In this document: positions 2,410-60,535 of the stretch, in pieces
Layout of the letters: every line of letters starts with the position of its first letter
Position numbering within the stretch: position 1 is the first letter of the stretch
NCBI GenBank assembly: GCA_010093605.1
Contig: MU004181.1
Span: 434,001 to 498,000, forward strand
DNA length: 64,000 nucleotides
DNA from: Lophium mytilinum
Taxonomy: Eukaryota
Direction: 5' to 3'
Translations under genes and position numbers: made by a program
Notes under the pieces: model-generated
Seen by the model: the letters and a program-made list of their open reading frames with translations, nothing else
Told to the model about the DNA's origin: nothing
Databases searched by the model: none

Positions 2410-2830
2410 CTCGATTTTTATACTCATCACGTCAAGACACCTCAAACGGTACGAAGGCGTGATCAAGATCGCAATTATAATCTGCGGGTTCAGATGATGA
2501 TAGCAATGTTGGGTGTTCATTCCATCCACATTGTAGAGCTATCTTTCGATACTTAATTCTCGTTTGGTCAACCTATCAAAAAACCTCATACAGTACGAAT
2601 GCGATATCAAGATCTCAACCATGCCGTGCAGATTCAGATGATAGTGCTTTCAGCTTTAAATTCCAATCAGGTCCATAGGGCTGGTTTCTGACATCCAATC
2701 TTTATCTTTTCCAGCACGTCGAGAGACTTCAGACGGCGCAATTGCAATATCAATAGCTCAACCACTAAATGCAGATTCACACAGAGCATTCGGCTTTTCA
2801 TTCCAATAACTTCCACCGAGCTTCTACGCA
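2410..2830 (-). repeat. Degenerate tandem array, ~143-bp period, 3 units
   Basis: GACACCTCAAACGGTAC (2436), AAAACCTCATACAGTAC (2580) and GAGACTTCAGACGGCGC (2723), each followed by ATCAA..GC(G/A)G(G/A)TTCA..TTCCA blocks. Confidence 0.75.
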
Positions 2831-3068
2831 AGCACTACCATAACTCCCAATTCCCGCCTAGCCGCCCACGTTAATCTCTGCCGTTTTTCGCACGCCTATA
2901 AAACAATTAGCTACTAAATCCTACAGTTGAAACAGAATAGGATATTCTTACTGCGTAGGAGAATCAAGCCAGCCCCGCCCCCTAAGCACCCGATGTAGTC
3001 ACTCCGTCTAGACGGTCCACAAGTCAGCGGTTCATTCTTCTCCCAGTGATATCAGGAAGCACATACCT

Positions 3069-3290
3069 TCACATCTCCTGCAACTCCACCTCCTCCCCCT
3101 CGCCCTCTGCAGCCTCTTCTTCCACCCCCCGCCGACCCAGGTTCCGCCACATCTCCCTCACAAACGCGAAAAACGCCGCGAACGCCTCCGGACCGAGCCA
3201 AAGGTACAAAACGGCCACAGCGGCCAGCACGCAGACGACGACGACGCCCTGCACTATGAGGACGACTTGTAGGATGTCGGACCAAGACAT
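3069..3290 (-). CDS. Small orphan membrane protein (73 aa, MSWSDILQVVLIVQGVVVVCVLAAVAVLYLWLG...)
   Basis: ATG in CCAAAATG context after a C/A-rich leader; hydrophobic N-terminal segment; acidic tail. Confidence 0.65.
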   Translation of the reverse strand: MSWSDILQVVLIVQGVVVVCVLAAVAVLYLWLGPEAFAAFFAFVREMWRNLGRRGVEEEAAEGEGEEVELQEM

Positions 3291-3821
3291 TTTGGTTTGA
3301 TGGTTTAGATTGTGGTATGTGTGGATGTTGAGGATGAGAGGGCTGATTTGCAAACGAGGGCAGGCGGACGATTTTATGGGGTGGTGTTGGGGTGCTACCT
3401 TCACTATTTTGACTTCACTTTGGATTGTGCGCCACTTCGCCAAAGACATGGTGGGAGGGTGAAGATCAGGGTGGTAGTGGAGGGGCTTTGCGCACCGGGT
3501 CCTGGCCTCGAAGTCTTTTGCACCCCTTGATCATGTTGATGGGCAAGAGCCTACACATCAGAGGTCAAGTCCTGTACTGATGGGACTATGATGGCATTGT
3601 GTGAAGTGGCCTGATTGACTTCTACTTTACGAAATGGATGGGAACAGCGGCAGAACTTCAATTGAAAGGGTAGCACAGCAGGCCAAACCCGGATACCAAA
3701 CTCGGATACCAAATTTGCGTGCTGCAGACCCACTCTTACTCTCACCAGTCTCCACTACTTCTTCATCCGTCATGATGTATCCTACAAGCGAACCCGATCA
3801 GCTATACCAGGATATCAACAG

Positions 3822-4661
3822 TCATGTCGCAGTGTCCAGCCAACCGACTATCCTCCATCCTCGGCCAGGGCAGATGCATGTGCCTCCGCAACGGGCATAT
3901 TCTCCTGGCGGTGGGAAGATCAGAAGTTCTGAACATGCTCTCCTTCTACGCCTTCCTGGTTCCCTTGACCTGGAAAGCTTGCCAGATGTTCTTGTGCTTC
4001 TCGAGTGTCTTACTTCCGCCAACGTTGCTGGCCATGCAACGGCTACCTCGCCCGCAGGGTCGAACGCAGTGGCATAGACTCGACAGGTGATAGTACACTC
4101 ATATCTGCCATTCGGCTTGCCCAGTTTGATGAAGCGCTGAGCGGTCCTGCCATCCGTCCCCTTCTGCCATGCATCATGACCAGTGCGAAACAGCTTTGCG
4201 GGTGCGAGAGGGCAGTCTTCATGCGTAGGACGCGGAGGCAGCTGAGGCGACCCCATGCGTGCTCTCTTCCTCGGGCGTGAAGACTTCGTTTCAGCGGTCT
4301 CCATCTGCTTTGCTGTAGGCTTGGAGGTCGAGTCCTGTTGCGAGTGACTTGACGTCGCGTTGTCCGACGGTGTGGGGCTGTTGTGTACGTGGTGTGGTGA
4401 GCGGCGCTCCCGTAGCCGCTGGCTCACCTCCACGGTCCGTTTCGCTGGCATTTCTAAACTCTGAGCCGACGGCGCAGGACAGAGGATCTGTTGTAGTACA
4501 CTGGGTGGCGGGCTGCTCTCCTCGCTGGGGAGGCGGAGGGTCTCGAAGGGGTTGGTACCTTGGCTGGTAGGGCGGAAGGCGGAGAAGCTGAGGTGGAGGG
4601 AGTTGAAAGACCACTCAGAAGACGTGTTGCCGGAGCGGTGGGAGTTGTTCGGGTCGGCCAT
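3822..4661 (-). CDS. Hypothetical Ser/Pro-rich protein with basic RPRKRAR motif
   Basis: Long open frame (340 codons from the TTG at 4844; first likely ATG is MADPNN at 4661). No recognisable domain. Confidence 0.35.
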   Translation of the reverse strand: MADPNNSHRSGNTSSEWSFNSLHLSFSAFRPTSQGTNPFETLRLPSEESSPPPSVLQQILCPAPSAQSLEMPAKRTVEVSQRLRERRSPHHVHNSPTPSDNATSSHSQQDSTSKPTAKQMETAETKSSRPRKRARMGSPQLPPRPTHEDCPLAPAKLFRTGHDAWQKGTDGRTAQRFIKLGKPNGRYECTITCRVYATAFDPAGEVAVAWPATLAEVRHSRSTRTSGKLSRSREPGRRRRRACSELLIFPPPGEYARCGGTCICPGRGWRIVGWLDTAT

Positions 4662-7600: not shown

Positions 7601-8559
7601 CTACTGTATCCCGAATAGGGCCTTGACTGTCTCTTGAGAGGAAGAGAGATGTCCGAGCATCATGCTGCTGTGTGACCCGACCAGGCAGTATTCGCGCGTG
7701 GCCAGGCTACGTCTCAGCCCGATGACTACGGCAGCTTTCTAGATTCGTCTTACGCCAGGGCACTTGATATGAACGACGGCCTCGAGTTCTTGCTTGCAAA
7801 TCTCTCCCCCTTCTTCCCTGCGAATATGCCTTGCGACTCTTACGCCTGTGTTTCAGCGTATCTGACAATGCACCGACCGCTCTTCTCTCCTGAGACGGTC
7901 ATGTATCCAAAGTTTGACTCGGCGTCAGTCCGAAGTTTTCTCGCGCAATGTCCTTGATCACGGGCCTCGGAGCTAATATAGAACTAGAGACGACTGTCTG
8001 GGACTTGCGGTCTTGGCCGGAGAGCCTGTCATTCGAAGCACGAAAGACGTTCGCCATATAATCGAGGAACCGTGATCATCTGCAAATGCAAGATACCAGG
8101 GTTTGTGGGACGATGTGTTGTCAGAGCTTCGAAAACTCGACTGCGTCAGTAGACACTCGTTGATACGCCGCTCTCGGCGCAACCGTGTGTTGGGGAAGCT
8201 GCCTAGTGAATGATCAGGGCGAATGTTTTTAGCTGACCGCTTCCACCGCAAGCACCTTTCCGGTAGACGAGCTGCGGAAGTCAGGGCTTTCACGTGCGAG
8301 AATCCGATGTGTGATGGTCGGGGGTCTAAGAGAGCCAAAGGAAAGTGCTAAAGAGGGATACGAAAGGCGCGCTGGATAGTCTGGTGTGTGGGGTGAGCCC
8401 ACGAATGGCGGCTCGGACGATTCGTCCATGGCGTTAGGTATTTCTCTAACTGGTCGAAGGAGGGTTTGCTAGCGCTCTTCTGCCTTTCATCTCCTCATCT
8501 TCGAGCTTCGTCTTCGGCTTCACACTGTTCATCATGATATGTAACGATACCACTGCTTG

Positions 8560-8690
8560 GGTTGGCCCCATGTGGTTTCATGGAGCGAGTCAAAGTGTCA
8601 GTATCAACCACTTTTCTCAAAGCCTTATACCTGCATTGAGCCACTCCAGACGCCTGCCTCACATAGTCAAACAGCCGGTAATCACTAAAC
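8560..8690 (-). repeat. Inverted single copy of the 9.5-10.1 kb repeat unit
   Basis: The reverse complement reads CTGTTTGACTATGTGAGGCAGGCGTCTGGAGTGGCTCAATGC, matching the units at 9722 and 9884. Confidence 0.8.
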
Positions 8691-8766
8691 AAATGTAAGC
8701 TTGCAGAGTGTACATCATGTCATTCGTTTCCAAACCCTCTTCTCCGTCTACGGGAGCCAGCCCTCT

Positions 8767-9270
8767 CTACCAATAACCCACCCCACCCCTCCTCACCGGA
8801 TCTCCCCTCCACCTATAGTGCCTATTATCCGGCCAATGCACCCTAATCGGGTCCTCTCTCTCCTTCATCCACCGCGCGTGCGCCTCCTCCCTCGCTTTCG
8901 CCTCAATCTCGGCCTCCTATGGTACAAAAGTCAGCATGTCTCACATAAACACTATAATCGAGGAAGATTAGGCGAAACGTACCTTCATCCTCTGCTTCTT
9001 CTCCATGACCAACTTATCTACGGCATACTCCCGGGCCTCCGCGTTGGTGCGGTCGTGCTCCTCGTCGTCCGACGGCGTGAAGGCCGCACCACGCACGCCG
9101 AAGCTGGTGCCGAGCGCGTACGCGATGGTGTGGCGGGTGGCGGCGGGCTCGGGGTGGTGGAGGAGGCGGCGGACGGCACGAGGCGCGGTGGAGAGGGCGG
9201 GGCCGGCAGACGGGGCAGCGGGGCCAGCAGCAGCAGCGGTGTTGGTGGTGTTGGTGGTGTTTTGGGCCAT
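8767..9270 (-). CDS. Small orphan protein, 2 exons (9270-8983, 8916-8767); paralog of 20472-21029
   Basis: GTACGT..GCTGAC..ATAG phase-0 intron. Shares RLL..P, AYA.G, DRTNAE.R..A and I..HWP.NR with the 20.5-kb gene. Confidence 0.8.
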
Positions 9271-9529
9271 TTTGGCGGTGTTCTTGGTGGTTTTGAGAGG
9301 TTTGGTGGCGATGTTGGTGATGGTGCTTGCTGGTGGGCTATGGGGCGGCGAGGAAGAGTTTCGAGGTGGGCAGATTCGGGTGAAGGTGGATCATGTGACT
9401 GAAGCTGAATGTTCGGGTGAAGATGCATTGGCTATAACGCAGGGCTCAGTGCAGGCGTAAAGCTTTGGGAAAGGTAAATGAGGCTGGGATGAATGAGACG
9501 CTGTACACTCCGTAAACCGCGATCATGGT

Positions 9530-10140
9530 GTACTAACTGACTGTTTGGCAATCTGATACCGGCGTCTGGAGTGTCCTGATGCGGACATGTTTCCGCAAGA
9601 AAAGTAGATGTACGCGAGCTGCGATTTCGAAATGGAGCTCGAGTCGTAACAAACTGAGAAGCTCTACACTCTGTATTTCTAGATCATGGAGTAATGACTT
9701 GTCATTTGGCGATGTGATGCCGGCGTCTGGAGTGGCTCAATGCGGACATAACTCTATAAGAAAGGGAAGTATAGGCGACTTACGATCTCGAGATAGAGCT
9801 TGGGGCGTGAACCAAACTAGATACTCTTCGCCCTGTGTACCGCTATCTTAGTATAATAGAAGACTGTTTGACAATGGAGTGCCAGCGTCTGGAGTAGCTT
9901 AGTGCGTACACAAGTCCATAGGAGAAATAGAGGTAGGCGAGCTGCGATTTTGAGATGGAGCTCTGATTGAAACAAAATAAGACGCTCTTTGCTCCATAAC
10001 CCGATATAATCATTCAGTAACCAGCTGTTTGACAATGTGATCCCGGCATCTGGAGTGTCTCAAGGCGAACATGGTTTCGAGAGAAAAGAGGACGAAGAGG
10101 AGCTGAGATTTGGGACGGATCTTCAATCGTATCATATGGC
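9530..10140 (+). repeat. Degenerate tandem array, ~161-bp period, 4 units
   Basis: (G/A)GC(G/A)TCTGGAGT at 9561, 9722, 9884 and 10045; CTGTTTG(A/G)CAAT precedes three of the four and GAGCTG(C/A)GATTT-like blocks follow. Confidence 0.85.
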
Positions 10141-11103
10141 GCGTTGTTGCAAACATCCGTAGCCCTTCTTGCCATCGTCTGGGGGTCTCCCGTGTAACGA
10201 TAGAAAATTGGCTAAGAGAACGCACTCGCCATCTGTGTACACCAAGCTGACGCTGTCCGAGGTGGCCTCCCGATTTTGCGAGCCTTCCAAAACGCCGAAT
10301 AACTCCCTCAGTGGTCTATTACCGCTTCAGAAAATGCAATTCTCGGGCTCAAGGCACTCCGCGCTCCGGATCGTGGAGTCCAGACTCAACAAATTGGATT
10401 TGATGGGAGTAGCTGCCGTCGTGGGGAGCAGGGGGTGAGGGGTTGAGGGGGCCTCATTGGCCTGAACATTATGCGAAAGGGGCGCATTTCGCTCAACGAT
10501 TTCAAGCCCCTGCAGCAGATCAATAGCCGGACGGCGCGATTTGGCTACTGCCGTGATGATTTCGAGAAGCATAGAGACCAGATCAGGTGAGAATAAATAA
10601 GTGTACGCAGGTACATTTACGACACATTGTGAAATTGAGCATAGATCATTTACACCTTGATGAACTCCTTTTGCCCAATGTGAGCTGACCCGCTCTCAAC
10701 GGCGGTATCAAGCAAGCAACAGTATAGCAAGATCACTGAGATATCCGGGTGCTCCTACGATGCTCGACTCCGTTACTGTCTTCAATCAGGCAGGCGCAGT
10801 ATGGGGCTTGAGATTCAAGTTACGCCGCCGATCGGTGTGGAGTGTTTTGGAAAAGTGACATTCGATTGTGATGTGATTACAAGTCTATTTTGCAGCAACA
10901 GCAACGTCTAACGATACACAGGTCCGACTAGGCATCTCCAGCTTCGAAACAATGCTGAGCATCAATCCCGTCACCGCTTAGTCGAAAGGCTGCCTGAGGA
11001 GCGCAGTTAGTATCTGGCCTTCACGAGATGCTTCCTGAAGTCAAACCTTGGTCGTCTTGGTCATCCATGCACTTTTCCGCGGTGACCGCATTGAGCAACT
11101 AGA

Positions 11104-11348
11104 GAGCATGGTAGATCCATTCTTGAGCTGCAGGCCATACTGAGGAAGGTAGATGCCGTCGTGCATGCCCAACACATTTAGGTACATCCGCCCTTGTCTC
11201 GGATGTTGGGATCAGCGCCTCGAGCAAGCAAGCCGGCAACAAGTCGAGTAAAGCCAAGACCCGCAGCCAAGGGGAGCATGGTGGATCCATTCTTACGTTG
11301 TAGGTGATACTGAGGGAGGTAGATGCCATCGTGCATATCCGACACATT
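11104..11348. repeat. 75-bp direct repeat, 170 bp apart
   Basis: GAGCATGGT(A/G)GATCCATTCTT...GGTAGATGCC(G/A)TCGTGCAT...ACACATT at 11104 and 11274; the minus frame reads MHDGIYLPQY.LQ.KNGSTML twice. Confidence 0.85.
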
Positions 11349-12309
11349 GAGGATTTCTACGAACGACTCCCCGGTGGCCGCCTTGTCCGCTGGAGCAGCT
11401 TGTCGGTGTTGACGTCCAGACTAATAACCATTGTTGGAGTAGCCAACTTGACTCCTCTGGGTTTGGGCAGCTGCTAAGATACTCCTCATTATGTCTTTCT
11501 CTGTGCCTTGTTCATTCGATTGCTGAGCCAAAAGCTGCATAGCCAACTCGGTCAGTCTAGCCAGCTCGTCATCAACGTATGTGAATCTGCCAGTAGATGG
11601 CAGCAGGCGATGGCTTCCCTAGCTCCAAAAGTATTCGCACCTGAATGGCTGCTCTCGTTGGTTCAGTGGCGGACGTTCAGGCGAGTAGGAGCTGGATGAG
11701 GAGGTGGAGTCGGGACGAACTTCGGTTAGAGGGGTGTAGTCGGCAGAGGAGGGGAAGGCAGAAGAGACGGGGCTGCCACGGCTCCTTTTCGCTAGTCCGA
11801 TCATGTTGCTGCTTGTTGTCCGAGGCGTGGCTACAAGGGTAGCTTCTTGATGATGACGGGCGTTTGGCACCATGTTGCGTGAGTCCCCCTTGAAATGCTC
11901 CTTGTGTCTTTTGAGAAAGGTCAGCTGGCTGAAATTGCAAGGATACTGCATGAGATGGGAACAGTACCCAAGCCACCAACGACGAGGTGTATCCGGAAGA
12001 TGTCCTGGCCACTGCGCTGGAGGCAACGCTGGTGAAGCTGGTGTTGCTGTCGCGAGAGGCTCCCTTTGCTCCAAGGCTCTGTCCTGCTGCCGATGAGACC
12101 GTCATCGACCGCAGATATGATGCGTGGGATTCGTCCTTGCGAGCGCATGCTCGAGAAAAAGTTTGTGAAGGAGAGGATGAGAGATGACCGAGCGCTGTGG
12201 AATGGGATGGTGGTGTGAAGGCGGAGGAATTACCGTTGGGGGAGCGAGAGAGGAGTTCCCCAACGAGGAAGACGGCAGCCACCTTACCCACCTTGGCGAT
12301 AGTAGCCTC

Positions 12310-12510
12310 GTAAAGTCCTATGTAATAAGTCTACCTGGGTAGGCACATGGACTCGCTACTGACACCACTGTCGGGAGTAGCCTGGCTGCTGATTAGCCAG
12401 TCAGTCAAAAGGCAGTTCAAACTGAAGTGCTTGAACCTCGACACCGTGCTTGGATCGTCGAAATCCAGTTGGGGTACCCCAAGCAGTGGCGAACCAGTGT
12501 ACCTAGATAT
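12310..12510 (+). repeat. Dispersed ~200-bp hairpin-like element, copy 1
   Basis: GACACCACTGTCGGGAGTAGCCTGGCT...GTCAAAAGGCAGT...GGGGTACCCCAAGCAGTGGCGA matches 63287-63420 (+) and 55643-55850 (-). Confidence 0.85.
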
Positions 12511-15206
12511 ATGCACCGTTACAGTACTAGCACTTGCTAATTTAACGGCTACAAAATGGAAGCTCTTCAAAACATTCGCATTATGGCTGTCCCCCAGTGC
12601 TTCACGCAGATGATAAAAGTCACAAAAGGGCACGTGACAAATTAAGCCTTCCAGTGCTAGGGGTTATCTTGCGGGGGACGTGGATGTCACTTTTCGACAT
12701 TTCATTTCTCGTCTTTCGTCTAACTTTCCTAGCCCCATACAATGGGCATTTCATCACGGTATGCCATTGAACGTACGTTCCCCGACTGAGTTCCGTCTCG
12801 ACGGGGCTCCCAGGGCGGCAGAATGTCCTCTTATGTGCGAAGTCTTGGGCCGTTGTCTAGCAACGGAGGGTGGGTGGCCGCCGAGCAAATCCCCTTAACG
12901 CGCCCGATTTGTTGACTAGCGTGCCTTTTGGGAGCAAGAGAAGCGAATGCGTGAAAGTGAGGAGGTTCGGGGGAAGGTCCGTCACTTGGGCAAAGACACC
13001 CCAGAAATGTCCAAGAGTCCAGCAATCGGTTTTTAATTACCTTAGGCAGTCTTACTGGTCCAGAAGGGCACCACCGCTGACGTCGCTGGGCTCACTGATA
13101 TCGATGCGTGCCGAGGTCTCTTTAGGTGACATTGTTGGAGCGGAGATGGGAGCAGAGCTGGGAGGGGTGCTTGCAGACGCTTGTGGCCAAGGCAGGACGG
13201 TTTGACTTCTTCTCACTCTTGGGAAAGTAGCGCCCCTCACGTAGCTGGTGAATGCCTTCGTTCCTGGCCTGGCCTGCTTGTAGATGTTAACAAGGCCCAT
13301 TGTCAAACCTGGGCTGGAGGTACCTACCGTAGGGACCCGGTTCCGCATCCCAAAGTTCTGCTGCAGCTTCGACGGCATGGTGGTCTGCTCCTGCGGCAAC
13401 AGGAATCCGGGCTATTCCGGGCACTGAAGTCTTGAAATTGAGAGGCCATTCGTGCTCCGCAGCATCCGCCGCCTGGCTGTTCTGTGACTCAATGTATTGC
13501 GTGTGCTGAAATGATCCTTTTTGCCGGGCTGCTAGCCTGGCCAAATCTCATCCATTCTGCGGTATTGTCACGGACGTCCACGGTTCCTGCCTCGCGCGAG
13601 TCTCCTCCGGATTCCGCGTGGTTGGTGCTGTTCGTGAAGAAGAGCTTGAAGACAGAGCTGGAGGCGTTTTTCGCCTAGTACGACAGCGAGACCTTGATTT
13701 TGCGGGAGTTCGACGGTCGGTAAAATCTAGTTTGGTACAGTTAGTGAGAAGCTATTGCGACGGAAACTCTTAAGAGTTCACCTGTAAACCCTGCTGTTTC
13801 CAGAGTCATCACTTTACTTCTTCTGCTCACTTGGCTGCACAAGCGGAAGGGTCTGCAACTTGACTCCTAAGGATGTCTACGTACTCGCAGGGCTTCTCAA
13901 GGGCGTGCTTCATTCCACTTCTAGCTCCACTTGTTCGGATTCTTCGACTTGTCAAGGCTCCGGTGACATCTTCAGAAGACATGATGTATGAATGAGCTGT
14001 CGAGGTCTGCGCGGGGTTAGCTCGGGCACGATAGCAGCTCCGCATCTCTGCGGGCTCGATTCTACATACGAGGGAGACGGTTCAGGAGATGGATGGGTTG
14101 GGGGAGATGAGACAAGGTAGGACGCCTCTTCTTGGTTCCCCCAGTACTAGGGGTCCTTTCCTTCCTACTGCCCGCCATGGTGGAGGGCCTCGCCGTTGGA
14201 AGCGTGGTGGGGTGAGGTGGACCTCCGGTCCATCACAGACCGGCTCTCATACCGGCGGAGGTGTAGTGGAGTTAGGTAGTGAAGGGGAGGTGAGAGACGA
14301 CGGTCATTGAGCCTGAAAACGGCGTTTGTCGGAGGAGAGAGGATGCGGACGGAGGTGGTTTCGAAGCAGGCGGCGAGCGGCTATCATCGAGGGTGAGCAG
14401 ATGATGGAGACGGCAAGGAGACTGTGCGGATGACGCACTCCGATGATGCTGAGTGCTGTGTCGGGAGAAGATGATGTTCGGGAAAGCTTTGGAGGCGGGG
14501 ATGTTGGCGCGGTGCCGCTAGCAGCTTGAACCATGGACCGCTCGCTCGACCAACCACGGAAAACACAATCACGGGCGAAACGTTAAAACAACTTCACTTT
14601 TGGAACGAATACCAGTCAGGCAGTGAGGTGCTGTTTCATAGCATTGTGTCAAATTACTAAAAGGACAGTTTCACCGGCGCAGATAAACCCCAAGGTCGTG
14701 ATTGTGGATTTCCAGTCGAATACATTGCATAATAATGAAACCATAAAGCAGGCCATGTGCCGATCTCGAGAGTCAAATTCCGAGGGCAAGGCCAGTGATG
14801 ACAGGTTATTTCCGGGGTAACCTGGAGCTCTATACATGTTAGCACCGATTCAGACGAAGATATCCTAAGATCATCTTCACCTGCCAGCCAGATTTTTGGT
14901 ACATTACTCCCTCCGATTCCCTAACAGCTCCTAAATATCGTGTCCTTCGTCTACATTCCGAAGTCGGCGTAGATGAACTGATGCCGGCGTCCCGTTCCAT
15001 TATTCCGTCAACCGGCATAACTGAACTTCTAGTGGCAAGACATCCGTCAGCACCAACGCGGTAAATGATGGCGAATAGAATGTACGAACAAAAAGACTCG
15101 ATAGCGACACGGTCATCGACATCCCGGGCCCCATCAAGGCGCAATCCAGGACTCGACACGATCGTGCCTTGCTCCCATACGGCCAGTCATCTTGTCTAGG
15201 CGCATC

Positions 15207-15428
15207 ATCAGCTCGAAGCGACTCCAGGCTGGGCTGCCGCCTCTGGCCCACGAACACGGAAGTAACGAACTTTACGCCTTCGCTGGCGAGAAAGTCAACG
15301 CGGCGCTGCACTGCCTTTTTGTCGAGCTTCATGTTCGGAATACCGTACATCAGGAGACCGCCGACGCGATCGGAGCGCTCGTAGACGGTGACGGAGTGAC
15401 TAGCTTTATTCAACTGTTCAGCAGCAGC
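15207..15428 (-). pseudogene. GLT1: Fragment of NADH glutamate synthase (small-subunit-like region)
   Basis: [56 protein letters not shown]...SLESLR; flanks are unrelated. Confidence 0.9.
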
Positions 15429-19090: not shown

Positions 19091-19267
19091 CATACCTATG
19101 ACCCAGTACTACGTAGCCTTGATAACAGGCAAAGGACGTGTTCTCTTTCGCACAATGGGTACATCACTGGTCAATGCAAGAAGAGTAAGTCAGAGCACCA
19201 CGAACAGGATTGCAATTGGTAACATTATAGAAAGTTGGGTCCCCCCTTCCCCCTCCTCTCTCTCCCT

Positions 19268-46805: not shown

Positions 46806-48024
46806 GTAGCCAGAGGCACTGAGGGGGCAGCAATGGTGAGCTAGTCACGAAATCCGATGATAGTGTACGCTAATCCTACTATAGGTTTCAGTGCAGAGTG
46901 TCGCGAGCATCAGTAAGTTGGAATGCATCAGGAAGTAGTAGTGCTCAAGTTGTGCAGTATTAGGTCAAGGTCTTGGGGAAATACCGATGGATTACTATTC
47001 AGGTTCGACCTTTGCTCGCTCGACGTCGCTGTGAGGAGTATCCTGGCTAGCAGAAACCGATGTAGACAAAACGTAGTCTATTTCCTACGACATGAAGGTT
47101 CACCTCACGTGCTACACGTTTGCATGCCTACTGCCAAATCTCATGCAGTAGAAAATAGACTACCAGAATACTATGACCAACCAATTACTAACTATGGGAG
47201 CATCCCTAACAGTAATACCTAGCTTCGAAAGTAGTACGTGAGCCGTGCAAGTATCTATATAGGGGACTCGTAGCTACACTATCTTTCGGGAAGGCTCACA
47301 CCTCTGCGCGCTCTGAATTACATCCGTAAATGCTTTTCCTCGATATGTATGTAAACAACTCTCTCACGCTCCTGATAGTGTCCAATCTTTTCTCCCCGGT
47401 CAGTGGTCACATTCACATACTCTTCCACCTTCGTGAAAACGCAACAAACGGGAGATATACCAAAGTATCAGATGGATAGCAATCGAAGTCACCGAGGTTT
47501 CTACTCAGTCTAATCGAGATATGAAGTGACGGTCCTTGCACAGAGATGAGGTTGGGGCGCAAAGATTGCGCTACGGCAACCTCCAGCGTCCGTCTTGCAA
47601 CCATCTTCGCACGTCGCTCCCACCAACTACGCGCACACCTTCATTAACCTCGTATGTATCCTATGCATCCTGAAAGACATACCTTGGGATTTCCTGACAC
47701 TTAGATAGCGATATGAGTCGTTTCACTCCACCGGGACCTCTATTTTCGAGGGCGGCTCGAGACCGATGACGGCGAGCAGCGAGCCGAAACCCCACCAGAG
47801 CATATCCAAGATTTCGACCGCATATCGTCCGCTAGTCTCCAGTCCTGCTGGGCTTTGGCCAACTTCGCCCACGGCTTATTCTGCGCAGTACTCACCGAGC
47901 TTGCGCACTACACCCGGACGCATCTGGTCGCTGGCTCACGGCCTTCCATTGCGGTACACTATGACCACATGAGCACATCATCAATTTCTATTAATTAAAG
48001 TACTTCTATTAACATAGTTGCAGC

Positions 48025-49651: not shown

Positions 49652-50362
49652 TCTGGCAAAGCAGAAGCTGTGCTTTCAGCTACGTGCGGTGCGGTAGGGT
49701 GAGTAGGCTGTCAAGCGGCCTGTGGTAGGCTTGGATGCTGGGAGGGGGTTTTCACTGCCTGGATATGGCTATGCCGGAGACGCTAATGGTTCCGTATCCC
49801 TGCGCGCACGGCATGTTCGCTGGAAATCTGATGTTGCCGGCGGATTGATACTGGCTTATGGCGATCGCTCCCTTTCTGGCTGCTGCAACTTACCTCACGT
49901 TCTGAGGCTATGGATAAGCGGCTTGGTTCTGATAGATTGTTCGTGAAATGAAGATGCTAGACTAGGCTCGGCGATGCTTTATTTTGCTTCAAACACATAA
50001 CACTCGTTGGCTCTCATTGCGAGATTAAAGTAGTAACCAAAACATGACAATGCGGAATCGCCCTTATGAATTTACTGTGAGGATATATACCACTGCTCTG
50101 TTTTCGCTATTGCTCGTTCGATACCACCGTGAGGGGTCTCCTGGGTAGTGTTCCTATGTTCAGTCAAAAGGTTGTGTTATTTCCCTTGTGATGACCTTAC
50201 ATTATCTATGAAGTTTCCAACACCGCCTGAGCTGCCACAAGCCGCTGCGGTATGATGAGCGGCTCACGTCAACCTGTAAATCTTCCCCACTCGAAAAACT
50301 TTCCGCCGACACAGCCTACGACGAGCCCCCCGTCTTCCCCCTTCCGCTACCCTGCACCCACG

Positions 50363-51261
50363 ATGCCCAACCTGGAGGACTTCTCTTTCTTTCCATTTGT
50401 GCCTTGAACAGCGCCCCTGACGGCTAGCCCTGCGCTAGGATCAGTCCGACACTCCATCAATCATGCGCATTCCCCTCCGCCCATCGAATGTTTTCCGCGC
50501 AGCCTCGCCAGCCAAGCAGCGCGTACGGCAAGCTTGGACGACAAATCCGAAGACTCGGTTTGAAACGAGTCAGCATTTGCGCCACGAGAGAGCGCGCTGC
50601 ACTCATACACATCTTTTACCAATGCGGGCCCCGTAAGTGCCACGTATGCATCCGATCTTATAATACTGCACGACCCGCTCGGCGTTGGGCATCTGATGCG
50701 ACTGGATCTCACACGCCCCCTAGCTCCGAGAGACGTATGATATTGCACGCCAGATCCCATGGCGGAGCGTGTAGGCTGCCCGACGTTGATGCCAACGGTT
50801 GAGTTCGTAGATGGCCAACCCACGATCACGGTGCCCGATCTTCGAATAGGTGCTGTATGTAGCAAGTGGAAGCACTCCGAACAAGAGTTTATGGTGACAT
50901 CCTGTGGCCATTGTTGGGCTTGCTGTTTGTGGAGTCCTAGGGATGGAATGCGTGTTGAGATTGGCCGCGGGAGCAGCGACACCATCTGCTCCACCAATGC
51001 GTAGGGGATCGAGTTCGGTGATGAGAGGAGGATGCAACGAGGGTTTGTAGGGTAGGCCGAGGCAGGGCTTGGGTGAGCTGACGCAGCTTGGATCGAATAG
51101 CGCTCTCCGTCCCGTGAATAGTAGATAGCGCATCCGTATTTTGGTTACGACTCGATTGAAGCGAAGCCTGGCTCGGACCCCACGTCTCCTGAAGAGGAAG
51201 CGCAGTGGGAGGCTCGGTGCAATTGGCAGAGTAGGAACTGAGGGAGGTTTGAAGGAATAGT
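50363..51261 (+). pseudogene. Degenerate RING remnant R3
   Basis: CSKW..MVTSCGHCWACCL..IC and a downstream LKRKRS like its neighbours; multiple stops. Confidence 0.4.
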
Positions 51262-51738
51262 AGTTGTTGCTGGTGTGCTCACGTGCTTTCCCTTTTGCTG
51301 CAGTAAGTTTCCTATGATAAATCATTCCTCCACATGCAACAGTCGAGCTGTCAAGGCGAGAAGAAAGCCCCTGTTCATCACACTGAACTAGCATAGCCAG
51401 ATTTGAGGTGAAATATACGAGATTTCTCCATGTCGAGCTAATTAGCCTCAAGGATACTCGTATCGCAATATTGAGCTGCAAAGTCAAACCATATAAGTGT
51501 CAAATCTAGGTGCACAGCCAAATGGCAGAGAAGTGCTCCTGATATCCCCTTTCCCCGTCCGCGGGTCTAGTGTTGCCAAGGCCGAATGGCCCATGCGCTC
51601 GCTAGTGCTTGAGTGCGGTGCTCAACCCCCCATGAAATTCCGTCATCCAACTTCGAATTCGTCTTCCCCGAATTAAGACAGCAAGCCTGCGTCTTGAATA
51701 CTTTTCTTCACTGTCTCCTCAACTCAAAGAGCGTAAAG

Positions 51739-53163
51739 ATGAGTGACACCAGCAGTACATCCGGAAGTGCTTGGTCAGACTCGGAGCCCGAGTTTGACTT
51801 CCCCCCGCATGATGGGTCCAGATCGGGACCATTTCAGCCAGCTGCACTCCCTGTCGGAGTCCCTATGCTTGGACTGAGTGCGGAAGCTTTGGCATCCATC
51901 TCACACCAGGACGAAGGCCCACTCATGCCGCTATGCAACTCCTGCTTCGAGGGCAAGAAGCCGACCCGGTTCATCCACACCTGTTGCAATCACGAGATAT
52001 GCAAGAAGTGTTTCATTCGGTGGATACAGCTATCAGAGCATCACGATTGCAGATGCCCGATCTGCAGAAAAACGTTCACGCTTGTGCAGGTACTCGGCGC
52101 ACAACTCTCTGGGCGGATGGTATCAGAAGCAACTGCAACAGAATTTCAAGAAATTGCAGTAAGTTGTTAAGCTCAAATCATTCTCTCTCTGGGCTGCCTG
52201 CTGATTGATTTGAATCAGGAACTTTATCATCAGCATCGCCCGCTCAAAGCTTTCTCGGAACACGCCGAGCTCGAACTGCTCGACAGCTTCAAACTCCCCG
52301 GTCCCTTCTACATTACGCATATCGAGCGTGGAGGGCACAAAATCAAAGGGACCTGCCGCCGCCCAGGCCGAGGAGAGAAAGAGTCCGACGTTGATCTGGC
52401 GAGAATGATGATGAAATATCGACAGCGACGTGCATACCACTTACGAAGGGGTCATGGCGACCGAAGCGTAGACATCCAGAAAGGGCTTGTCTGGGAGACG
52501 CTATACGGAGCCAATGCATTCAGCTTCGGGTCCTTCAGTACTCAGAACCAGGTCGATCGCTTCTCCAGGCATGCCTTTCGCTTGATGGACTTCATGGACG
52601 TCAATACTCTAGTTGGACGGGACGCACAAGAAGCCTTCCGGCAGCTGTGCGATCAATTAGCGGTCATACCGGTGACGTCTGCGAATGACTACCGGGAGTT
52701 GTTGCTCTCCGAAGACTGCATAGATGAATACCTCTGCCATTCTTTTGATTCCGGACATCGCAACTCGCTCGCCAATCTCCCAGGCCTCATCGACTTGGTA
52801 CTCCGTCTCGCCGCAAAGCTGATCTTTGCCATCCACACCAAGGGCTGGAACTTCGCTTTAGGAGGTTGGGGCCGTAACGCCCTCCGGTACAAATGGTCTT
52901 GTCCATTTGCTCACATTGTCCCGGGACACCGATATCCCTCCTCGCAGTTGAGTCGCACAGAGTGCACTCAAGACCAAAAGGATGTCGCACAAGCCCTTTT
53001 CATCAGAAAGTACGGAGAAATGGTCGAATCGATCAAAAATGAGCAAAACTTCTACGAGGCGTCCCCTGAGGAAGTTGCAGCCATCATACAACGATTCAGA
53101 CCTACTCGACCCGACCGCCTTTCACTGAAGCGGAAGCGTGAGGCGGCGGCTGGGCAGGGCTAG
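51739..53163 (+). CDS. RING-HC plus F-box-like domain protein R4, intact (exons 51739-52158, 52219-53163)
   Basis: CNSC..CCNHEICKKC..W..CPIC; GTAAGT..CTGAT..CAG phase-0 intron; WETLYGANAFSF..EDCIDEYL..LPGLIDLVLRLAAKLIFAI; C-terminal LKRKR. Confidence 0.85.
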
Positions 53164-54459
53164 GGTGGGGTCTGAGGGCAGATTGAGGGCTTCCAAGGAA
53201 AGAGAGAAAGCTTGAGAGGAAAAAGGGGTATTCTCGAGGCGTGTAAAAGCTTCTTGGGAAGTTGTAATAGTAATAATCGACCTGGGTGGACGTGATAAGA
53301 GGCTGAGGTGGATAGAAAAGGTTCTTTTTGTTTCACAGAGGGGTCCATAGCGCACAAATCCGTGAGCCTTAACATTGCGTTTCTGCAGCTACAATGTCAC
53401 CCACACGGCTACCCACACGGCTCAGGTACTGCTTTGGAAACTAGATGCCATTGTCAAAAGTGTCTCTTGTAGTCACGTAGCTGACATGTCAAAACGATGT
53501 CTGATTCGATGTCTGATTCTCAAGGCATCAGCTTCTACACGTCATGAAGACAAGGCAGGCCTTCAAAAGGCTCCCTTGTACTCGCTCGAACAGTATTCTT
53601 CTCACTCAATACCACCGCCAGGGGCGGCCTAACCAGGAGGTTGAGATTCAAGCAAGACGAATTCAGACTCTCATTGCGTGACTAAGTTCGTTGCGATATC
53701 CCCTGCGATGGCAGGAAATTCAGGTCCGATGGTAGAATATTTCCATTGATACCGAGTGCAGCGTCCATCCGAAGGCACATATATATTTCCATGAGCCCCC
53801 AACAATGAAAATCATGCCCTCATAGACTTGATAAATCATATGCTACTGATGAAGAACACACAGCTGCAACCTTTAATGAAAAAGCATAGAATGCTCTCGG
53901 GAAAGGTATCCTACGAATGACTCGGCCCTCTACTCTACCCTTCTTTCTCTCCCTTCAGCTTGCAGCTGTGCTTGATAATCTTTGATACCTACGTACCATC
54001 GTTCGAGTTTCGCCGAAATATCCCATCTGAATGCCAAAACACGAACACCGCTGCAGAGCTGACATTCGCCACCGGTTTGCTAGACGCTTCATTCCAGTGG
54101 TCTCTTACATAATGGAGGAGGGTATCAAGCGCGAATAGCATTACATCCTACCATCGAGGTGGTTCAGGAGCATTGTAGTCTCTTTTCACAACAACATCAC
54201 TGCTTGAGGTACGTCAGCCGTCCCGAACACTCCGAGCTAATCTATCTTGCCCGTCCGCAGAAATTGACCTACGTGCTGAATACTCGAACAGCTAATCCAT
54301 ATACAATTTTTCGCTTCCTATATAAGATCTTTTTCCTTGCATCTTTCCCGTGCGATATCACGGTCGGAATTGCCTCAATCATGCTTGAAAGCTGGGGGCT
54401 ATCAACTCTCTCAAAACGATATAATCTGGACTCCACCATGACTTCCTCCGGACGATGAC

Positions 54460-55506
54460 ACATGGCAGCATCCGTCTTCATCTATCGGTGGTCCGTCGGC
54501 GAGGTCCTTGCGGGGTATCTTTCCGGCAGGATGCTGCGGACTTTGGTAAGACGCCACGCCCAAAACGACTACTCTTTGAATACTACTAGCACATATAGGT
54601 TCTATATCGAAACTAGTTCAGGTCCGAGGACCTTCCACAGGCACTGAAGCCCGACATCTCCGCCGCCGTAACACTACTAGCTACATTAAGGTCAGCACAG
54701 TAGACGGGAGGGACAACCAACTCGTAGGCCAGTGCAGGGATGGCAATCGACCAGAATTTAGCGTGAACCTGATCCGACTCTTCGACCAAGTCCGGGAGTA
54801 CGAATACGGAGGCTGGTGGAAGATCCCCACAGTGCAGCGAGACTTCTTCCTTGAGCCCATGTACCGCCTCAACGTCTTTTCGTTTCCTACACCTGCTGCC
54901 GCGGACGCATTACGTCAACTGAACCAGAAGAGTTATGACTGGATCGAGGAGATCGCGGTCACCACTCTGTCCTATAATCCAGTCACGAGTGGTTTCGCGT
55001 TTCAGCTACTTTGTAACACCATAGCGGGGAAGCGACCAGAATCCCTCTACCGAATCCGAGTCACACCCGCTTGTGTAGACGAGTACCTACGATATCAGTA
55101 CGACTGCGCGGAAAGAGACCTTTTTCACCAATTTCCCCGCATTGTGGAAGTAATCATCCTGCGCGCAACCCGGGTAATAATGGCAATTCGGAACAACGGG
55201 TGGAGCATCGCCATCGAGTTGGACGCCAGCGGAATGAGTACTGAGCCCATCTGGCATGAGCACGAGGATGGCACCGGCCACTACTCGCACGAAGAGTCGA
55301 CCCGATTGATAAAGGACTACGAGCAGTCATGTTTCCAAGGCCGGTATAACGAGGTGGAGAAATTACTCCTTGGCCATGACATGGATGCTCTCAGCGTCTC
55401 TGAAATCCGGGAGATTATTGGAATGTCTGCCGGGTGGTTGGAAGAGGGCCAGGAGGGAGCGCAAGAGATTTTGTGGCAGCAGCGGATCCATGATAATTTC
55501 GTGTAG
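54460..55506 (+). pseudogene. Family member R5; RING decayed, stop and frameshift early in exon 2
   Basis: WSVGEVLAGYLSGRML aligns to the post-RING motif; intron 54546-54598; TAG near 54615; EPMYRLNVFSF..ACVDEYL..FPRIVEVIILRATRVIMAI. Confidence 0.7.
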
Positions 55507-55642
55507 ATGCTTTATCTGGCTAGAAAACGTTAATTAGAAGGTTCGAGAACGTCTACATACCTTGAAACTCTGCACGTCACCGTGGAGTGCCAGCCTACCT
55601 TGTGTCAGTGCAGATGCCTCGATGACATGGTATACAGTGACA

Positions 55643-55852
55643 GGCCACAAGTCTGGGCACACTGGTACGCCATTGCTTGGAGGCCCCCGCAGGACTTCGA
55701 AGACTCAAGGGCAATGTCAAGCTTTAGGCTGTACATATTAGACTGCCTTTTGACTCACTGCCTGCTCAATAGCCAAGCCACCCCCAACAGTGGTGTTGTG
55801 TGGGCAAGTTCGAGCCGAGTCCGTGTGCCCAGCTTGTGGCCTAGGACTGTAG
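55643..55852 (-). repeat. Dispersed ~200-bp hairpin-like element, copy 2, with ~22-bp terminal inverted repeats
   Basis: GGCCACAAGTCTGGGCACACTGG (55643) and CCGTGTGCCCAGCTTGTGGCC (55821-55841); the interior matches copies 1 and 3. Confidence 0.8.
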
Positions 55853-56193
55853 CAAGCAAACATCGGGTGTAGGTATGCAACCTGTTTGCTCAATAATTGG
55901 GGTACAGGTTGCTCACAGTTCTGATAAAGAAGGTAAATCAACGGCAACTGAATCATATGCTGAATAAGTTGGCATAACTTAATGCCCACTTGGGATGTAA
56001 GCTCTGGTTTCTCTAGGCTAGATTGTCAGACCAGCGAGCCTCGCCGTATCATTACTAGGGTTAGAAAGCATGCAAGTAGGAAACCCCATTTCAGTCTATC
56101 TACTACCTGGACCCAGTGCCTCCGCGATTAGGTGTCCCCCGCCCATATCTTTCTTACCGCTTCCTGACATATATACTACACGTGCGTCCTAAT

Positions 56194-57838
56194 CTAGTCT
56201 AGTCCGATCTTCTTGCGCTTTGTCGCCGAGTCATCTCCTCCATGCGATGCATCGATATTGAATGCCTCCTCCGCAGCGCGTTTGCGGTCGTCGTGGTTTG
56301 TAGAGCTATCTTCTGTGGCTGCCAGTGGTGTCTCAATACTGGCTCGCGTAGTCGCTTGTGCTTCGAGAGTCCTCAGAAGTTCGAGGAAGTGATCGAGCTC
56401 CTCGAGAAGGAATTCATTGTCCTTGTCCGTCAACGTCTCGGCTAGAAACTTATCATCGTTTTCATCCTCCTCGTCACTAGTATCATCCTCGGAATTCTCA
56501 TCCTCAGAACTCTCTTCCTCAGAACTCTCTTCCTCGGCGTCATCCCCAGACATTTCTTCGCTGGTTCTATGCTCAGAGCCTTCAAAGCTAACCTCTTCCT
56601 CGGAATTCTTTTCTCGGTCGAGTGCGTGTCGTTTCTCTTGTAAGAGCCGTGCTAGCTCTTGGGCTTCTCGCACTACGCTCTGGAGGATCTCGTCCGTAGG
56701 TTTGATCTTGAGCTCCTGACCCGCAAATATCGATCCCACTAGGACGAGTTTCGCCTTCAAACGACGAGGTATGCTGGTAGGATCCTCGGGTTGATCTATA
56801 TGGCCAGGCTTGCGCAAGCGTGGCGGGATAAAATCCTTGGGAACTTGCACGAGGTTCTCCCAAAGAGCTTTGTCTTTAGCGGCGAGCAACGGAAGTGCAG
56901 CTACGGCGAGAGTCGTGGTGAAAGCGTCAATGGCTGGATCCTTGCTCACATTGTAGTCAGGGTCTTCACACAGGTAGTCGTCGACAGCCATAGAGTAGAT
57001 ACGGATCGACCGGAAAGACTTGGCCTTCGCGAGGATTACAGCGAGCTTTGCGACGTCGAGGCGGCCTTCGTCGCCGTAGTCAAGACGTTGCATCTCTACC
57101 TTCTCCAGCTGGTCGAAGTTGTCTCTATTCAGATTGCGGAGAAAGTGTCCTACCGTCCCGTCATCTAGACGGAACGTATTGACTCTGTAGTGAGCCTCTA
57201 GGAACAGGCATTGGAGCTGGGGGTCCGCTGGCTGGCCATCCTTGGTTCGGTATTGCTCCAGAGGCTCCACCAGGCTCACTCTGTAGTGTTCGCCATCGAA
57301 GTTGTCAGGGTACCACTCGTGATCGGATGACTCGTAGGCGAAGCCCATCCACTGACTATGTTGAATTGTGCCATGCTCTATGCGGCGTACCTCCATGGGA
57401 CCTTTGAGTCTCACAGAATCTTCCATGTCGGCTTTCACATCGTTCGGCAAGTCCTCGTACCGTGCATACGCAACACGAGGATCCTGCTGAACGGTCAGTC
57501 GTGCCGCATGAGTATTTTGCCGCTAATCCTACCGATGTCTTGAAGTCCTGGCGGGAAAGTCGCACACGTAGGACGTTGCTGAGCGTGAAATGATCTCGGC
57601 AGTGGGGGCAAATGGTCTTCCTATTTGTCCATCGCGCTAGACAGCGAGAACCGATCTTTCTCTTGCAGCAGGTCGTCTGGATCTGTTCAGTGTGCGCATC
57701 GTCTTCATAGTCCTCCAGGCAGATAAGGCATCCCTCATCCTCATCCTCCAAAGACGATGTAGTAGCCGCACCATCATTAGCATCATCATTTGAAGGGTTT
57801 ATAGGCGCATCAACGGCTTGATCTTCCTTTTCCGGCAT
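56194..57838 (-). CDS. Variant RING plus F-box-like domain protein R6 with acidic tract and KRKK, intact (exons 57838-57533, 57486-56194)
   Basis: CLIC..CCKRKIGSRC..W..CPHC; phase-0 intron; YEDLPNDVKADM..LEAHYRVNTF..AVDDYL. Confidence 0.85.
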
Positions 57839-59528
57839 CTTCTCGGCGGGGTCGGGGCGGGAGGCGATGTTCGAGTTCTGGCGTCGATGGTGTAAGATTT
57901 AGTGTTTCAATTCTGTCCGGGTCCGGAGTTTTTGACAGCGTCCGTGCTCATCGTGATCCCAGACGGGTGCAAAGCGTACGTAAGCAATGGGAAAGTCATA
58001 CATTGATAATACATACAGCTGTATATAGCCCTAGTCTACCGACGCGGCTGCATTTTCATTAGCCTGTTAAGCCAGCGATACAATGCGCCTGAAAGTAGCT
58101 CAAAAGGCAACCAACTCTAAGGTCACATGCCTATATGTTTACAGCCGTTGATGAGCAACATGATTTTACCATTCAGTCTACTACGTGGCTCGGATCTTCG
58201 CGCTGTCGGCAAATCGAGCTCCACGACTTTCAAACTTCTAAGTCTGCTTTACCAGCACGCAGAACCCTCGTCTTTGCACCGCAATGGCAACAAATCTACA
58301 CGCTGCAGTCTCAAGCGATCTATAAGCTCAAGGCGGGGAGGCGAGTTTTGGTCATCCGCCTTTAGACAACAAGACTTTCTAACTCGGCACAGGGCCAGAC
58401 GGATACGTCTCCTAGGGACAAATTCGATCTTACAAACCTCTCCGCGACGGATCCTTCACTCGCGCCCCACGCTGAGATCGCGCTGGAACCAATGCTACCT
58501 AGTCTGAACAGCTCGGATGTCCAACGTGGCGAAAAGAAGCCCAAATACTTGGAGAAGGTTGGTAGGCTAGGTAGTCACATTATGAACTCTCTTCAATGCG
58601 AATTCCTACGTAATACCTTCGGCTTCAGAATCTCCTCAACTGTGGTATTGGTTTGATGACCGTTATGTAGATCTTGGGCTCCCCTGATCTTTCGTTCTCA
58701 TATGGGCGCATGATGTACTTTCTTGAGGGTGTGAATAAGAATAAGTAAGCTGAGATTTCTTTGATACATTTGAGACATCCCAAACCATTTCAATTCCTCT
58801 CATCCAATCTTAAGCGTTCATGGCCATGATTCGGCACAGCGGTGTGACTCTTTTGCATAACTACTTGGAAGTCTCCCAGCAGACTCGTCGCCGTCCCTGG
58901 CTGAATACTCATTTAATAACAGTTCAAATCTTACCAAATAGGTTGTTGATTAGGAAAGACCCTTTTCGGTTTGAGACAACTTAGGCAGCATTTGTCAGGT
59001 AGAAAAAAGGCGCGTATCCGCGCATCTCCAAGTCATACTTCAAATGTGACATTCCATCTCACATCCAAAGATCCCTACAGGGCACCTCTGACAGTGCTAG
59101 TGGGGCGAAAAGGTTCGTGGTTCAACAAATTGATATCCAGCACCTTGAGCTTCCATTCTCACTTTGGAACCGGATAGAATAATTCAATATCTATTGAGGT
59201 AGGCCAAACAACACCGAAAATCTGGAAAACAAGTTGATCAGGAGTGCTCCAAAACAGTTTCCACCTTCATGAATTTGAATACGTCATAGTTCAGTACGGA
59301 CTTGAGTAGATTTGTACCCCGATGGGCACTCTTCGGATCCTGCGCGCAGCAATAGTGAAGATGCAAAAAGGTGAAGTTACAGGCCCGTGCGTCTCTTTTC
59401 TCTACTATGTCAGCTCGAAAGCGTCATGTCTATCTTCTTTCCTTGTCCGAAAGTCCTCATCATCCTCCTACGCATTGCTCAAAAAAGCACCAAAAGCACA
59501 CAAAACCTACACACAAAACCTACACACA

Positions 59529-59918
59529 ATGTCCACAAACAACCACGCCGACGATCACGAAGACCCCGCCGAGCAGCCGGCCGAGCATGATGCGGAGGCG
59601 CAAGTGGGACTTCTGTACCAACTCGACCCCCCCGAGGCCACCAGCATGGAGGAAGCCTGGGTCTGGAACGACCATTGGTGCAAAGAGGAGACAGAGACGC
59701 AGGCAAAGATGCACAAGTACTACCAGAAGTACAAGATGGGTACGTTCTCCTGCATTGTGTGGCCCTAATCTCACGTAATTGACGTTTTTGTAGAAAACGA
59801 GCTCGCGAAGGTCCGCATGGAGTACCTCGCCCCCGGCCCCTCCACATCAGCCCCAACTGAGACACGTTGGTGGCGTCGCGTGTTCGGCCTCAAGGGGTAC
59901 CAGCGCCTGGCCGACTGA
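59529..59918 (+). CDS. Small orphan protein, 2 exons (59529-59739, 59794-59918)
   Basis: C/A-rich leader; GTACGT..TAG intron gives MSTNNHADD...KYKM-ENELAKVRMEY...RWWRRVFGLKGYQRLAD*. Confidence 0.8.
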
Positions 59919-60174
59919 AGGGCGCGGTATCGAACAGTCCTACAGCACGCGAATGGGGTAGACGTCCGTGGGTTAGGCTTGGCGGCTTAGATTGGAGTGT
60001 GCGAGAGAGATAGAGTAGAAAAGGCTCGCGAACCTAGATCTTATGTACGGTGTTTTGGAGCTGCTGGGCGGAGTCTAGGGGCGGAAGATTGATCTATCAC
60101 CAACGACAGTCGTGGGGCTCGGGCGGCCTGGAATGAAGTCTTTTGCTGCCTTGATATGAGATTGCTCCGGAAAT

Positions 60175-60535
60175 TGCTCTGGATCTGTGATTGCGACATT
60201 AATGGTATATGAATTTCCATCTGCTTGCCGCCGTCTGAGTTGTACCTTGACCGGGTTCAAATCCAGATTTCAATGTCAAATTTCCAAAGGTACAACCTAG
60301 ACAACCGTCATTTACTATTCTAGATCCGTGATGGTGACATTGAGGATGTATGATTTTCCCTCGGCATACCGCCGTCTGAGGTGTACTTTCCTCCGATTAA
60401 AATGTAGATATCAATGTCCAATACCCAAACGTCAAAATTAGAAAACTGCCATTACCCTGCTCCAGGTCTGCGATCTTGACATTAATGATGTACGATTTTC
60501 CTTCGGTATACCACCGTCTGAGGTGTACCTCCCCA
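60175..60535 (+). repeat. Degenerate tandem array, ~141-bp period, 3 units
   Basis: CCGTCTGAG(T/G)TGTAC at 60231, 60372 and 60514; GACATT(A/G)A and TCAATGTC blocks also repeat. Confidence 0.85.

Follow-up and report, generated by a model that had tools for sequence, protein, structure and literature searches.

The 64,000-nucleotide stretch of the Lophium mytilinum genome analyzed here (assembly GCA_010093605.1, contig MU004181.1, positions 434,001 to 498,000; hereafter the window) contains several small genes accompanied by short tandem repeat arrays that carry a common core motif, and the question raised by this locus is what these arrays are and how they came to lie beside genes. In a preliminary description of this DNA, each gene with its array was treated as a module, and the core was regarded as a binding site preserved in otherwise decaying units. 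The arrays are labeled here according to their periods as A1 (143 bp), A2 (161 bp), A3 (150 bp), A4 (172 bp), A5 (105 bp), A6 (141 bp), and A7 (~107 bp, weak), and their coordinates are collected in Table 1 together with those of related features. Judging from the sequences, the arrays are probably the tandemly amplified arms of an old family of Tc1/mariner-like miniature inverted-repeat transposable elements (MITEs), with the core as the likely box bound by the transposase.

The link to a transposable element is provided by copies of the repeat unit located outside the arrays. A profile of the 150-bp unit, searched with nhmmer, recovered seven tandem units and nine solo copies in the 64 kb, the latter comprising four element-like copies and five decayed units. 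The best-preserved copy contains a 201-bp element (55642-55842) bounded by 21-bp terminal inverted repeats (TIRs; 55642-55662 and 55823-55842), which match at 20 of 21 positions, the remaining one being a 1-nt gap, and which extend to about 30 bp when mismatches are allowed, with ends reading TA/CAGT...ACTG/TA. Alignment of one arm of this element to the other yielded a score of 43, as compared with 19.4 ± 4.1 (largest 35) in 300 shuffles. The dinucleotide TA flanks both ends of one intact copy and also precedes the left end of the copy at 63.2 kb, and the copies at 12.3, 55.7, and 63.3 kb have approximately 200-230 bp in common. The consensus of the A3 array aligns to the element at 55.6 kb with z = 18.6, and the array unit takes in the terminus of the element. 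In the element at 55.7 kb, the left arm holds the core and the right TIR is adjoined by a core-like box that is inverted, so the core is a subterminal inverted repeat of the element; in addition, the array cores give weak matches (E 0.18-0.85), on the opposite strand, to a profile of the right half of the element.

Further information on copy number was obtained from a sequencing run bearing the same species label, which was available as contigs, whose RNA label is a guess, and which was compared over positions 44001-64000. In that interval, 34 contig pieces were placed, and they fall only on 55631-55680, 55780-55810, and 63344-63397, where short pieces have depths of 128-428. At least four different sequences adjoin 55632-55642, the position taken as the terminus of the element, among these contigs. 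This pattern is the look of a dispersed multi-copy element.

The core itself is well supported as a shared feature of the arrays. Allowing at most one mismatch, CCGTYTGRRGTG has 15 matches, whereas 100 shuffles average 2.27 and give 8 at most, and none (0/100) reaches 15; 14 of the 15 lie inside the arrays first described, and the remaining one is at 41828-41839(+). The core is present at the positions originally given for it. When the arrays are aligned on the core, a common block of about 25 bp emerges, approximately TGAYAC-CYGTYTGRRGTG-SCYC, and the core is the sole block common to all arrays. No further core copies were recovered with a 40-column core profile, which is too weak for that purpose.

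Repeat finding also bore out the periods proposed earlier, with 144/143 bp at 2432-2779, 161/162 bp at 9496-10149, 151/150 bp at 18533-19133, 172 bp at 21046-21389, 105 bp at 26074-26267, and 141/142 bp at 60175-60553, the units within arrays being 60-75% alike by this method. Tandem Repeats Finder detected the 172-bp array (1 of 17 rows) and left the other arrays undetected. Per-array profiles confirmed the presence of the arrays and showed that they extend beyond the limits first proposed, A3 comprising seven units (18088-19108) and A4 at least eight (21047-22704), the latter interrupted at ~21640-21985 by an unrelated insert. Overall, the arrays contain 3-10 units with 57-71% identity between units. 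With periods ranging from 105 to 172 bp, a single fixed spacing, such as the roughly nucleosome-like one proposed at the outset, is not suggested. At 42167-42303, where a ~107-bp module had been suggested, two cores are present, but both are weak (2 and 3 mismatches; E 0.12 and 3.5). On the 3' side of the gene 8767-9270(-) there is one unit, as the preliminary description had it, and the main four-unit 161-bp array is located upstream of the gene and is inverted relative to it.

The units of different arrays had been described as largely unrelated, a view that did not hold, as profile searches of the pooled arrays link five of the six. The matches comprise A4 with A1 (E 9e-9), A4 with A5 through the unit at 25965-26035 (E 2e-5), A3 with A2 (E 0.004 and 0.015), and A2 with A1 (E 0.03), and all cross-family matches are co-oriented. 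The core of the 105-bp units in A5 is of the type found in the 150-bp family of A3. Consensus-to-consensus alignments between families were not significant, except for that of A3 with the element described above, and A6 is tied to the other arrays through the core alone. Two of the arrays have inverted partners: the unit at 8605-8718(-) faces the four units at 9496-10135(+), and A4 is closed by an inverted 48-bp box, 32 nt of which are 84% complementary to 21143-21174. After the former unit, at 8550-8612, there is a weak match to the right half of the element (E 0.034). No inverted partner was found for A1, A5, or A6, nor for A3 in its adjoining sequence. By analogy, the inverted units flanking the gene 8767-9270 and the inverted box closing A4 may be arranged as in foldback-like elements. 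An origin of the arrays by nested self-insertion was considered and rejected, there being no matching stack of right halves after the arrays.

A scenario that would accommodate these observations starts with cut-and-paste miniature elements of about 200 bp, probably MITEs of the Tc1/mariner type, with ends TA/CAGT and inverted termini of 21-30 bp. One arm of such elements would have been amplified in tandem, leaving old, non-coding arrays presumably devoid of present function, and the subterminal box, inverted in both arms, would be the site held by the transposase. Subfamilies would have retained the box while the remaining sequence drifted, and for that reason arrays of different period would look unrelated apart from the core. 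The association with small genes would be partly inherited, since the genes 8767-9270 and 20472-21029 may have carried the element in their 3' flank before duplicating, and partly permissive, other elements having come to lie in 3' flanks, where insertions are presumably tolerated. The preliminary description had set its binding sites against the possibility that all units are subterminal repeats of a known transposon; A3 is homologous to the TIR element and the core is subterminal in both of its arms, but the element is not a described transposon.

The possibility that the units are relics of protein-coding repeats or of tandem micro-open reading frames, encoding a repeated peptide of ~35-57 residues that has since decayed, deserves consideration, and A6 is the array in which such a signal is strongest. 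Its substitutions show a three-base periodicity (p = 0.008 before correction for six tests), and the ratio of nonsynonymous to synonymous differences (pN/pS) is 0.45-0.53 in one codon phase, as compared with 1.4-2.6 in the others. Each of its three units forms a single sense-strand open reading frame (ORF) within which an ATG is conserved, and a TAG closes units 1 and 2 at matching positions. A4 displays a weaker periodicity (p = 0.046), and a 98-codon ORF runs across two units of A3. Against a coding origin, all six frames of every array hold stops (the fewest being 1 in 68 codons), many of them at conserved positions, and in A4 conserved stops close the frame homologous to the open one of A6. 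Three of the periods (143, 161, and 172 bp) are not multiples of three, pN/pS is 0.6-1.1 in A1-A5, four of the six arrays lack periodicity, a 141-bp unit leaves no room for a promoter of its own, and neighboring gene models end before or outside the arrays. A coding origin is thus considered highly unlikely. A specific variant, in which the arrays encode antisense repeats (an 'HLRR' frame with one intron per unit), was rejected: the splice sites restore no frame, the stops are conserved, and the neighboring gene model is complete without the array.

An RNA-level explanation, in the form of arrays of structured non-coding RNAs or of hairpins processed from long 3' untranslated regions (UTRs), receives some encouragement from short palindromic pieces near the core in some copies, such as 60233-60248, which pairs with 60287-60302. 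Nevertheless, RNAalifold finds zero consensus pairs among 15 copies from the 150-bp family, the folding energies of the A6 region are in line with those of its shuffles (z -1.95 and -1.13), no Rfam family reaches threshold, and a tRNA scan gave no match. An RNA origin accordingly appears extremely improbable, and an RNA structure in the 3' UTRs finds no support. As for the divergence of the units, an identity of 0.57-0.71 with a transition/transversion ratio of 1.06-1.48 indicates, on the sequence evidence, that they are old, and on this ratio repeat-induced point mutation was rejected as the source of the divergence.

Several observations weigh against an origin of the arrays as transposon debris. 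Both TIRs are kept in only one of the four element-like solo copies, so that the TA duplication is documented at a single copy. Apart from A3, the arrays are tied to the TIR element by links that are short, weak (E 0.004-0.03), or transitive, and for A6 the core provides the only link. In addition, a Pfam search of the 123 ORFs of at least 110 amino acids in the window revealed no transposase domain. To these is added the periodicity of A6 noted above. Among all 16-column windows, the core ranks first in conservation in three of six arrays, namely A2 (of 143 windows), A5 (of 88), and A6 (of 123), which hints at constraint after amplification, something that a dead transposon does not need. As claimed at the outset, the unit closest to the stop of the ORF carries the core on the strand of that ORF in all seven modules. 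Decayed units are still recognizable 3' of paralogs encoding RING-finger proteins that are 24-33% identical, in a search biased to conserved boxes.

These same features speak for exaptation, in which selection, whatever the origin of the cores, would now maintain them as sites for a host DNA- or RNA-binding factor in 3' regions, acting, for example, in termination, in the formation of 3' ends, or as chromatin boundaries that separate convergent genes. In addition to the conservation rank and the persistence of old solo units beside the anciently diverged RING paralogs, the core lies 58-333 nt past the stop, in sense orientation, in all seven modules, and the sense strand has more G than C in A1, A2, A4, and A5, as a transcription-coupled mutation bias could give. 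On the other side, the core is not the best-kept window in A1 (rank 45 of 125), A4 (12 of 139), or A3, and its rank is partly circular, the core having been selected for being conserved. The main A2 array is upstream of its gene and inverted, and A6 is also directly 3' of the convergent gene 60552-61316(-), to which it is antisense. When paralogs are collapsed, the annotated or domain-bearing genes yield four sense cases and one antisense case. Each of the points that speak against mere debris is thus weakened: the core and the copies were ascertained in a way that favors them, paralogy plays a part, and 9496-10135 and 60175-60596 are exceptions. Present-day selection on the cores is regarded as possible but unlikely.

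A more specific form would be a takeover of the box by the host, whereby a protein, possibly descended from a transposase as CENP-B is, binds the box arrays past the stops of lineage-specific genes and sets termination or a chromatin boundary; the box would in that case outlast the rest of the unit and always face the same way relative to the gene. This form is considered improbable. The initial proposal of binding sites kept in decaying units was thus a reasonable one, as the core is common to all arrays and is the top window in three of them, but the units come close to being the subterminal repeats of a transposon. Co-regulation of a set of tiny genes found no support, as only two of the small genes are related. 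The probability left by MITE debris and exaptation is assigned to coding relics, RNA, or chance.

These two related genes adjoin A4 and the 161-bp units. The gene 20472-21029(+), designated M4, is annotated as a 166-amino-acid hypothetical protein of Lophium mytilinum (BU16DRAFT_532497) and has a relative with 52% identity in Mytilinidion resinicola (BDZ99DRAFT_514166). In the latter, a model of 335 amino acids, the M4-like part corresponds to residues 185-326 and starts from an internal Met-Gly-Gln-Asn-Asn-Ser, so that this model may represent two fused genes. The gene 8767-9270(-), designated M2, shares 70% DNA identity with M4 over 214 bp, and alignment of the two loci extends from a box ~120 nt before the ATG, across the ORF with its intron in a shared position, to the stop. 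Both also carry, without any difference, the 21-bp stretch CAGTCACATGATCCACCTTCA (20352-20372 and 9381-9401), which lies approximately 100-130 nt before the ATGs in diverged surroundings and may act as a promoter or leader element. The presence of a relative in Mytilinidion identifies a real, order-restricted small gene rather than a high-copy transposon ORF, and a search of 1.84 billion representative proteins brought up only two true members of the family. Both paralogs have a repeat unit 18-49 nt past the stop, and the gene-plus-repeat layout consequently predates their duplication.

The description of the adjoining genes as small orphans is therefore only partly accurate: 20472-21029 has its Mytilinidion relative, 8767-9270 has its paralog, 42438-43328(-) is an annotated gene of 296 amino acids, and the remaining ones are candidate genes. 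Beyond the M2/M4 pair, no homology was detected among the seven small genes, and their proteins have no Pfam match. Ten ORFs were looked up exactly, two of which correspond to annotated proteins (42441-43328 and 61986-62762), and the exact sequence of the ORF 3069-3290 is absent from the protein collection. Among the 123 ORFs, Pfam matches are limited to RING fingers and two gene fragments. The RING fingers belong to a tandem cluster at 45444-57898 of five diverged paralogs (four on the plus strand and one on the minus strand), at least four of which have a zf-RING_2 domain; the paralogs have in common an unnamed C-terminal region after the RING with 24-33% identity, and most of the paralogs are followed by a decayed repeat unit. 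Solo units are found 200-520 bp past three of these paralogs, in sense orientation, and also past the gene 61986-62762.

Table 1. Coordinates (positions in the window) and strands of the arrays, solo copies, and adjoining genes
Feature	Position	Strand	Description
A1	2432-2863	-	3 units of 143/144 bp; cores at 2438-2449 and 2725-2736
Small ORF (predicted)	3069-3290	-	73 amino acids, one hydrophobic helix; upstream of A1
Solo 161-bp-type unit	8605-8718	-	Part of 8550-8718; starts 49 nt past the stop of the gene 8767-9270
M2	8767-9270	-	Two exons: exon 1 from 9270, exon 2 8916-8770, stop 8767; paralog of M4
A2b	9496-10135	+	4 units of 161/162 bp; upstream of M2; inverted relative to M2 and to unit 8605-8718
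Decayed unit	10681-10753	-	Similar to unit 46958-47080
Solo element copy	12330-12520	+	Internal deletion in left arm; 87% identity to the 63.3-kb copy over 139 bp
A3	18088-19108	-	7 units of 150/151 bp, all homologous to the element's left arm with its terminus
M4	20472-21029	+	Two exons, 20472-20819 and 20877-21026; stop at 21029
A4	21047-22704	+	At least 8 recognized 172-bp units; starts 18 nt past the M4 stop
Inverted box closing A4	22803-22851	-	Copy of the second conserved box of the 172-bp unit, 48 bp
A5	25965-26433	+	172-type unit 25965-26035; two 105-bp units 26074-26280; extra core 26413-26424
A7 (weak)	42167-42303	-	Two core-like sites 107 bp apart, 3' of the gene 42438-43328(-)
Decayed solo unit	46958-47080	+	3' of a RING-finger paralog
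Decayed unit	50085-50172	+	Similar to unit 46958-47080
Decayed unit	53379-53494	+	Similar to unit 46958-47080
Decayed unit	53599-53655	+	Similar to unit 46958-47080
Best-preserved solo element	55633-55851	-	201-bp element at 55642-55842
A6	60175-60596	+	3 units of 141/142 bp; between ORF 59529-59918(+) and gene 60552-61316(-)
Decayed solo copy	61498-61685	+	Left part 61498-61599, right part 61633-61685; E 0.001
Solo element copy	63222-63447	+	Retains the left TIR, decayed at the right end; 3' of the annotated gene 61986-62762(+)

The window contains several other repeats and fragments. At 29232-29982, direct and inverted copies of a ~25-58-bp motif, TTTTGTTGAGTCTTTATGCTTCGAC, are densely packed, including a perfect inverted pair of 41 bp separated by 139 bp and a tandem repeat of 85 bp (2.1 copies, 93%); this region has the appearance of a foldback- or MITE-like element that is younger and not related to the core family. 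In a region where recognizable domains are very sparse, two ORFs probably represent gene fragments: 23127-23639(-), in which 43 residues match the central domain of glutamate synthase, and 15003-15479(-), in which 25 residues match the N-terminus of a flavin amine oxidase. Just upstream of the 25427-25769 module lie a 112-bp imperfect palindrome (77%) at 24090-24200 and, at 24319-24782, a pair of 125-bp direct repeats 339 bp apart. The ORF 11099-11420(-), which has a weak ankyrin-repeat match (E 0.0015, below the Pfam cut-off), overlaps a 170-bp DNA duplication with 84% identity. At 1131-2004, diverged direct repeats (49-76 nt, spacings 114-584) coincide with a strong negative GC skew and with ORFs, on either strand, that contain recurring peptide motifs; there is no Pfam match, and this is possibly a repeat protein gene at the edge of the window.

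The conversion of an arm of a miniature transposon into tandem arrays is a route documented in insects and bivalves, and no fungal case of it surfaced in literature searches covering open-access papers. If the arrays are indeed multiplied MITE arms, they would provide a clear fungal example of such an arm becoming short tandem arrays. For annotators, the practical caution is that recurrent motifs beside orphan genes in the Lophium mytilinum genome should be treated as repeat debris unless shown otherwise. If, on the other hand, the box is kept by selection, the locus would allow the reuse of transposon-derived sites at the ends of genes to be tested.

Comparable arrangements have been described in other organisms. 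Alpha satellite monomers carry the CENP-B box, and CENP-B derives from a pogo-like transposase; the likeness lies in a short box that stands out from otherwise diverged units of 140-172 bp and in the parallel of a box of transposon origin. In contrast to alpha satellite, the present arrays are neither long nor homogeneous, display no evidence of concerted evolution, and have no centromere context, and their box-binding protein is only putative. The TCAST-like elements of Tribolium, for which a regulatory role has been proposed, are reported to occur as short satellite-like arrays and as single monomers near genes (PMC3411249). Short tandem arrays and single monomers scattered near genes are likewise seen here, in a different organism and with a different repeat.

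In Fusarium oxysporum, the miniature impala elements (mimps), belonging to the Tc1/mariner group, are described as non-coding elements of ~200-220 bp with TIRs of ~27 bp that form several subfamilies, and their association with small lineage-specific genes is presented as contextual, with no direct function shown, in the account of PMC3599309. Mimps differ from the present elements in that they sit in promoters, and tandem arrays of them are not reported in that account. A size of about 200 bp, TIRs, the lack of coding capacity, the division into subfamilies, and the small-gene context are shared by the two. The TIR sequence of the present element appears to differ from that of mimp.

In Drosophila virilis, the foldback transposon Tetris, its MITE relative DAIBAM, and the TIR-220 satellite form a related set in which terminal repeats are common to Tetris and the MITE; as outlined in PMC4079207, Tetris is non-autonomous and has tandem repeats inside its arms, which also form longer arrays. 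The present case is similar, in that the 150-bp array unit corresponds to one arm, the left, of a MITE-like element and that inverted partners accompany two arrays. It departs from the Tetris system, so far as that account goes, in that the arrays are short (3-10 units), old (57-71% identity), fungal, and located beside genes, with periods that vary between arrays, and in that the window yielded no complete foldback copy having both long arms. Tetris and TIR-220, together with mimp in terms of size and gene context, are the closest described cases.

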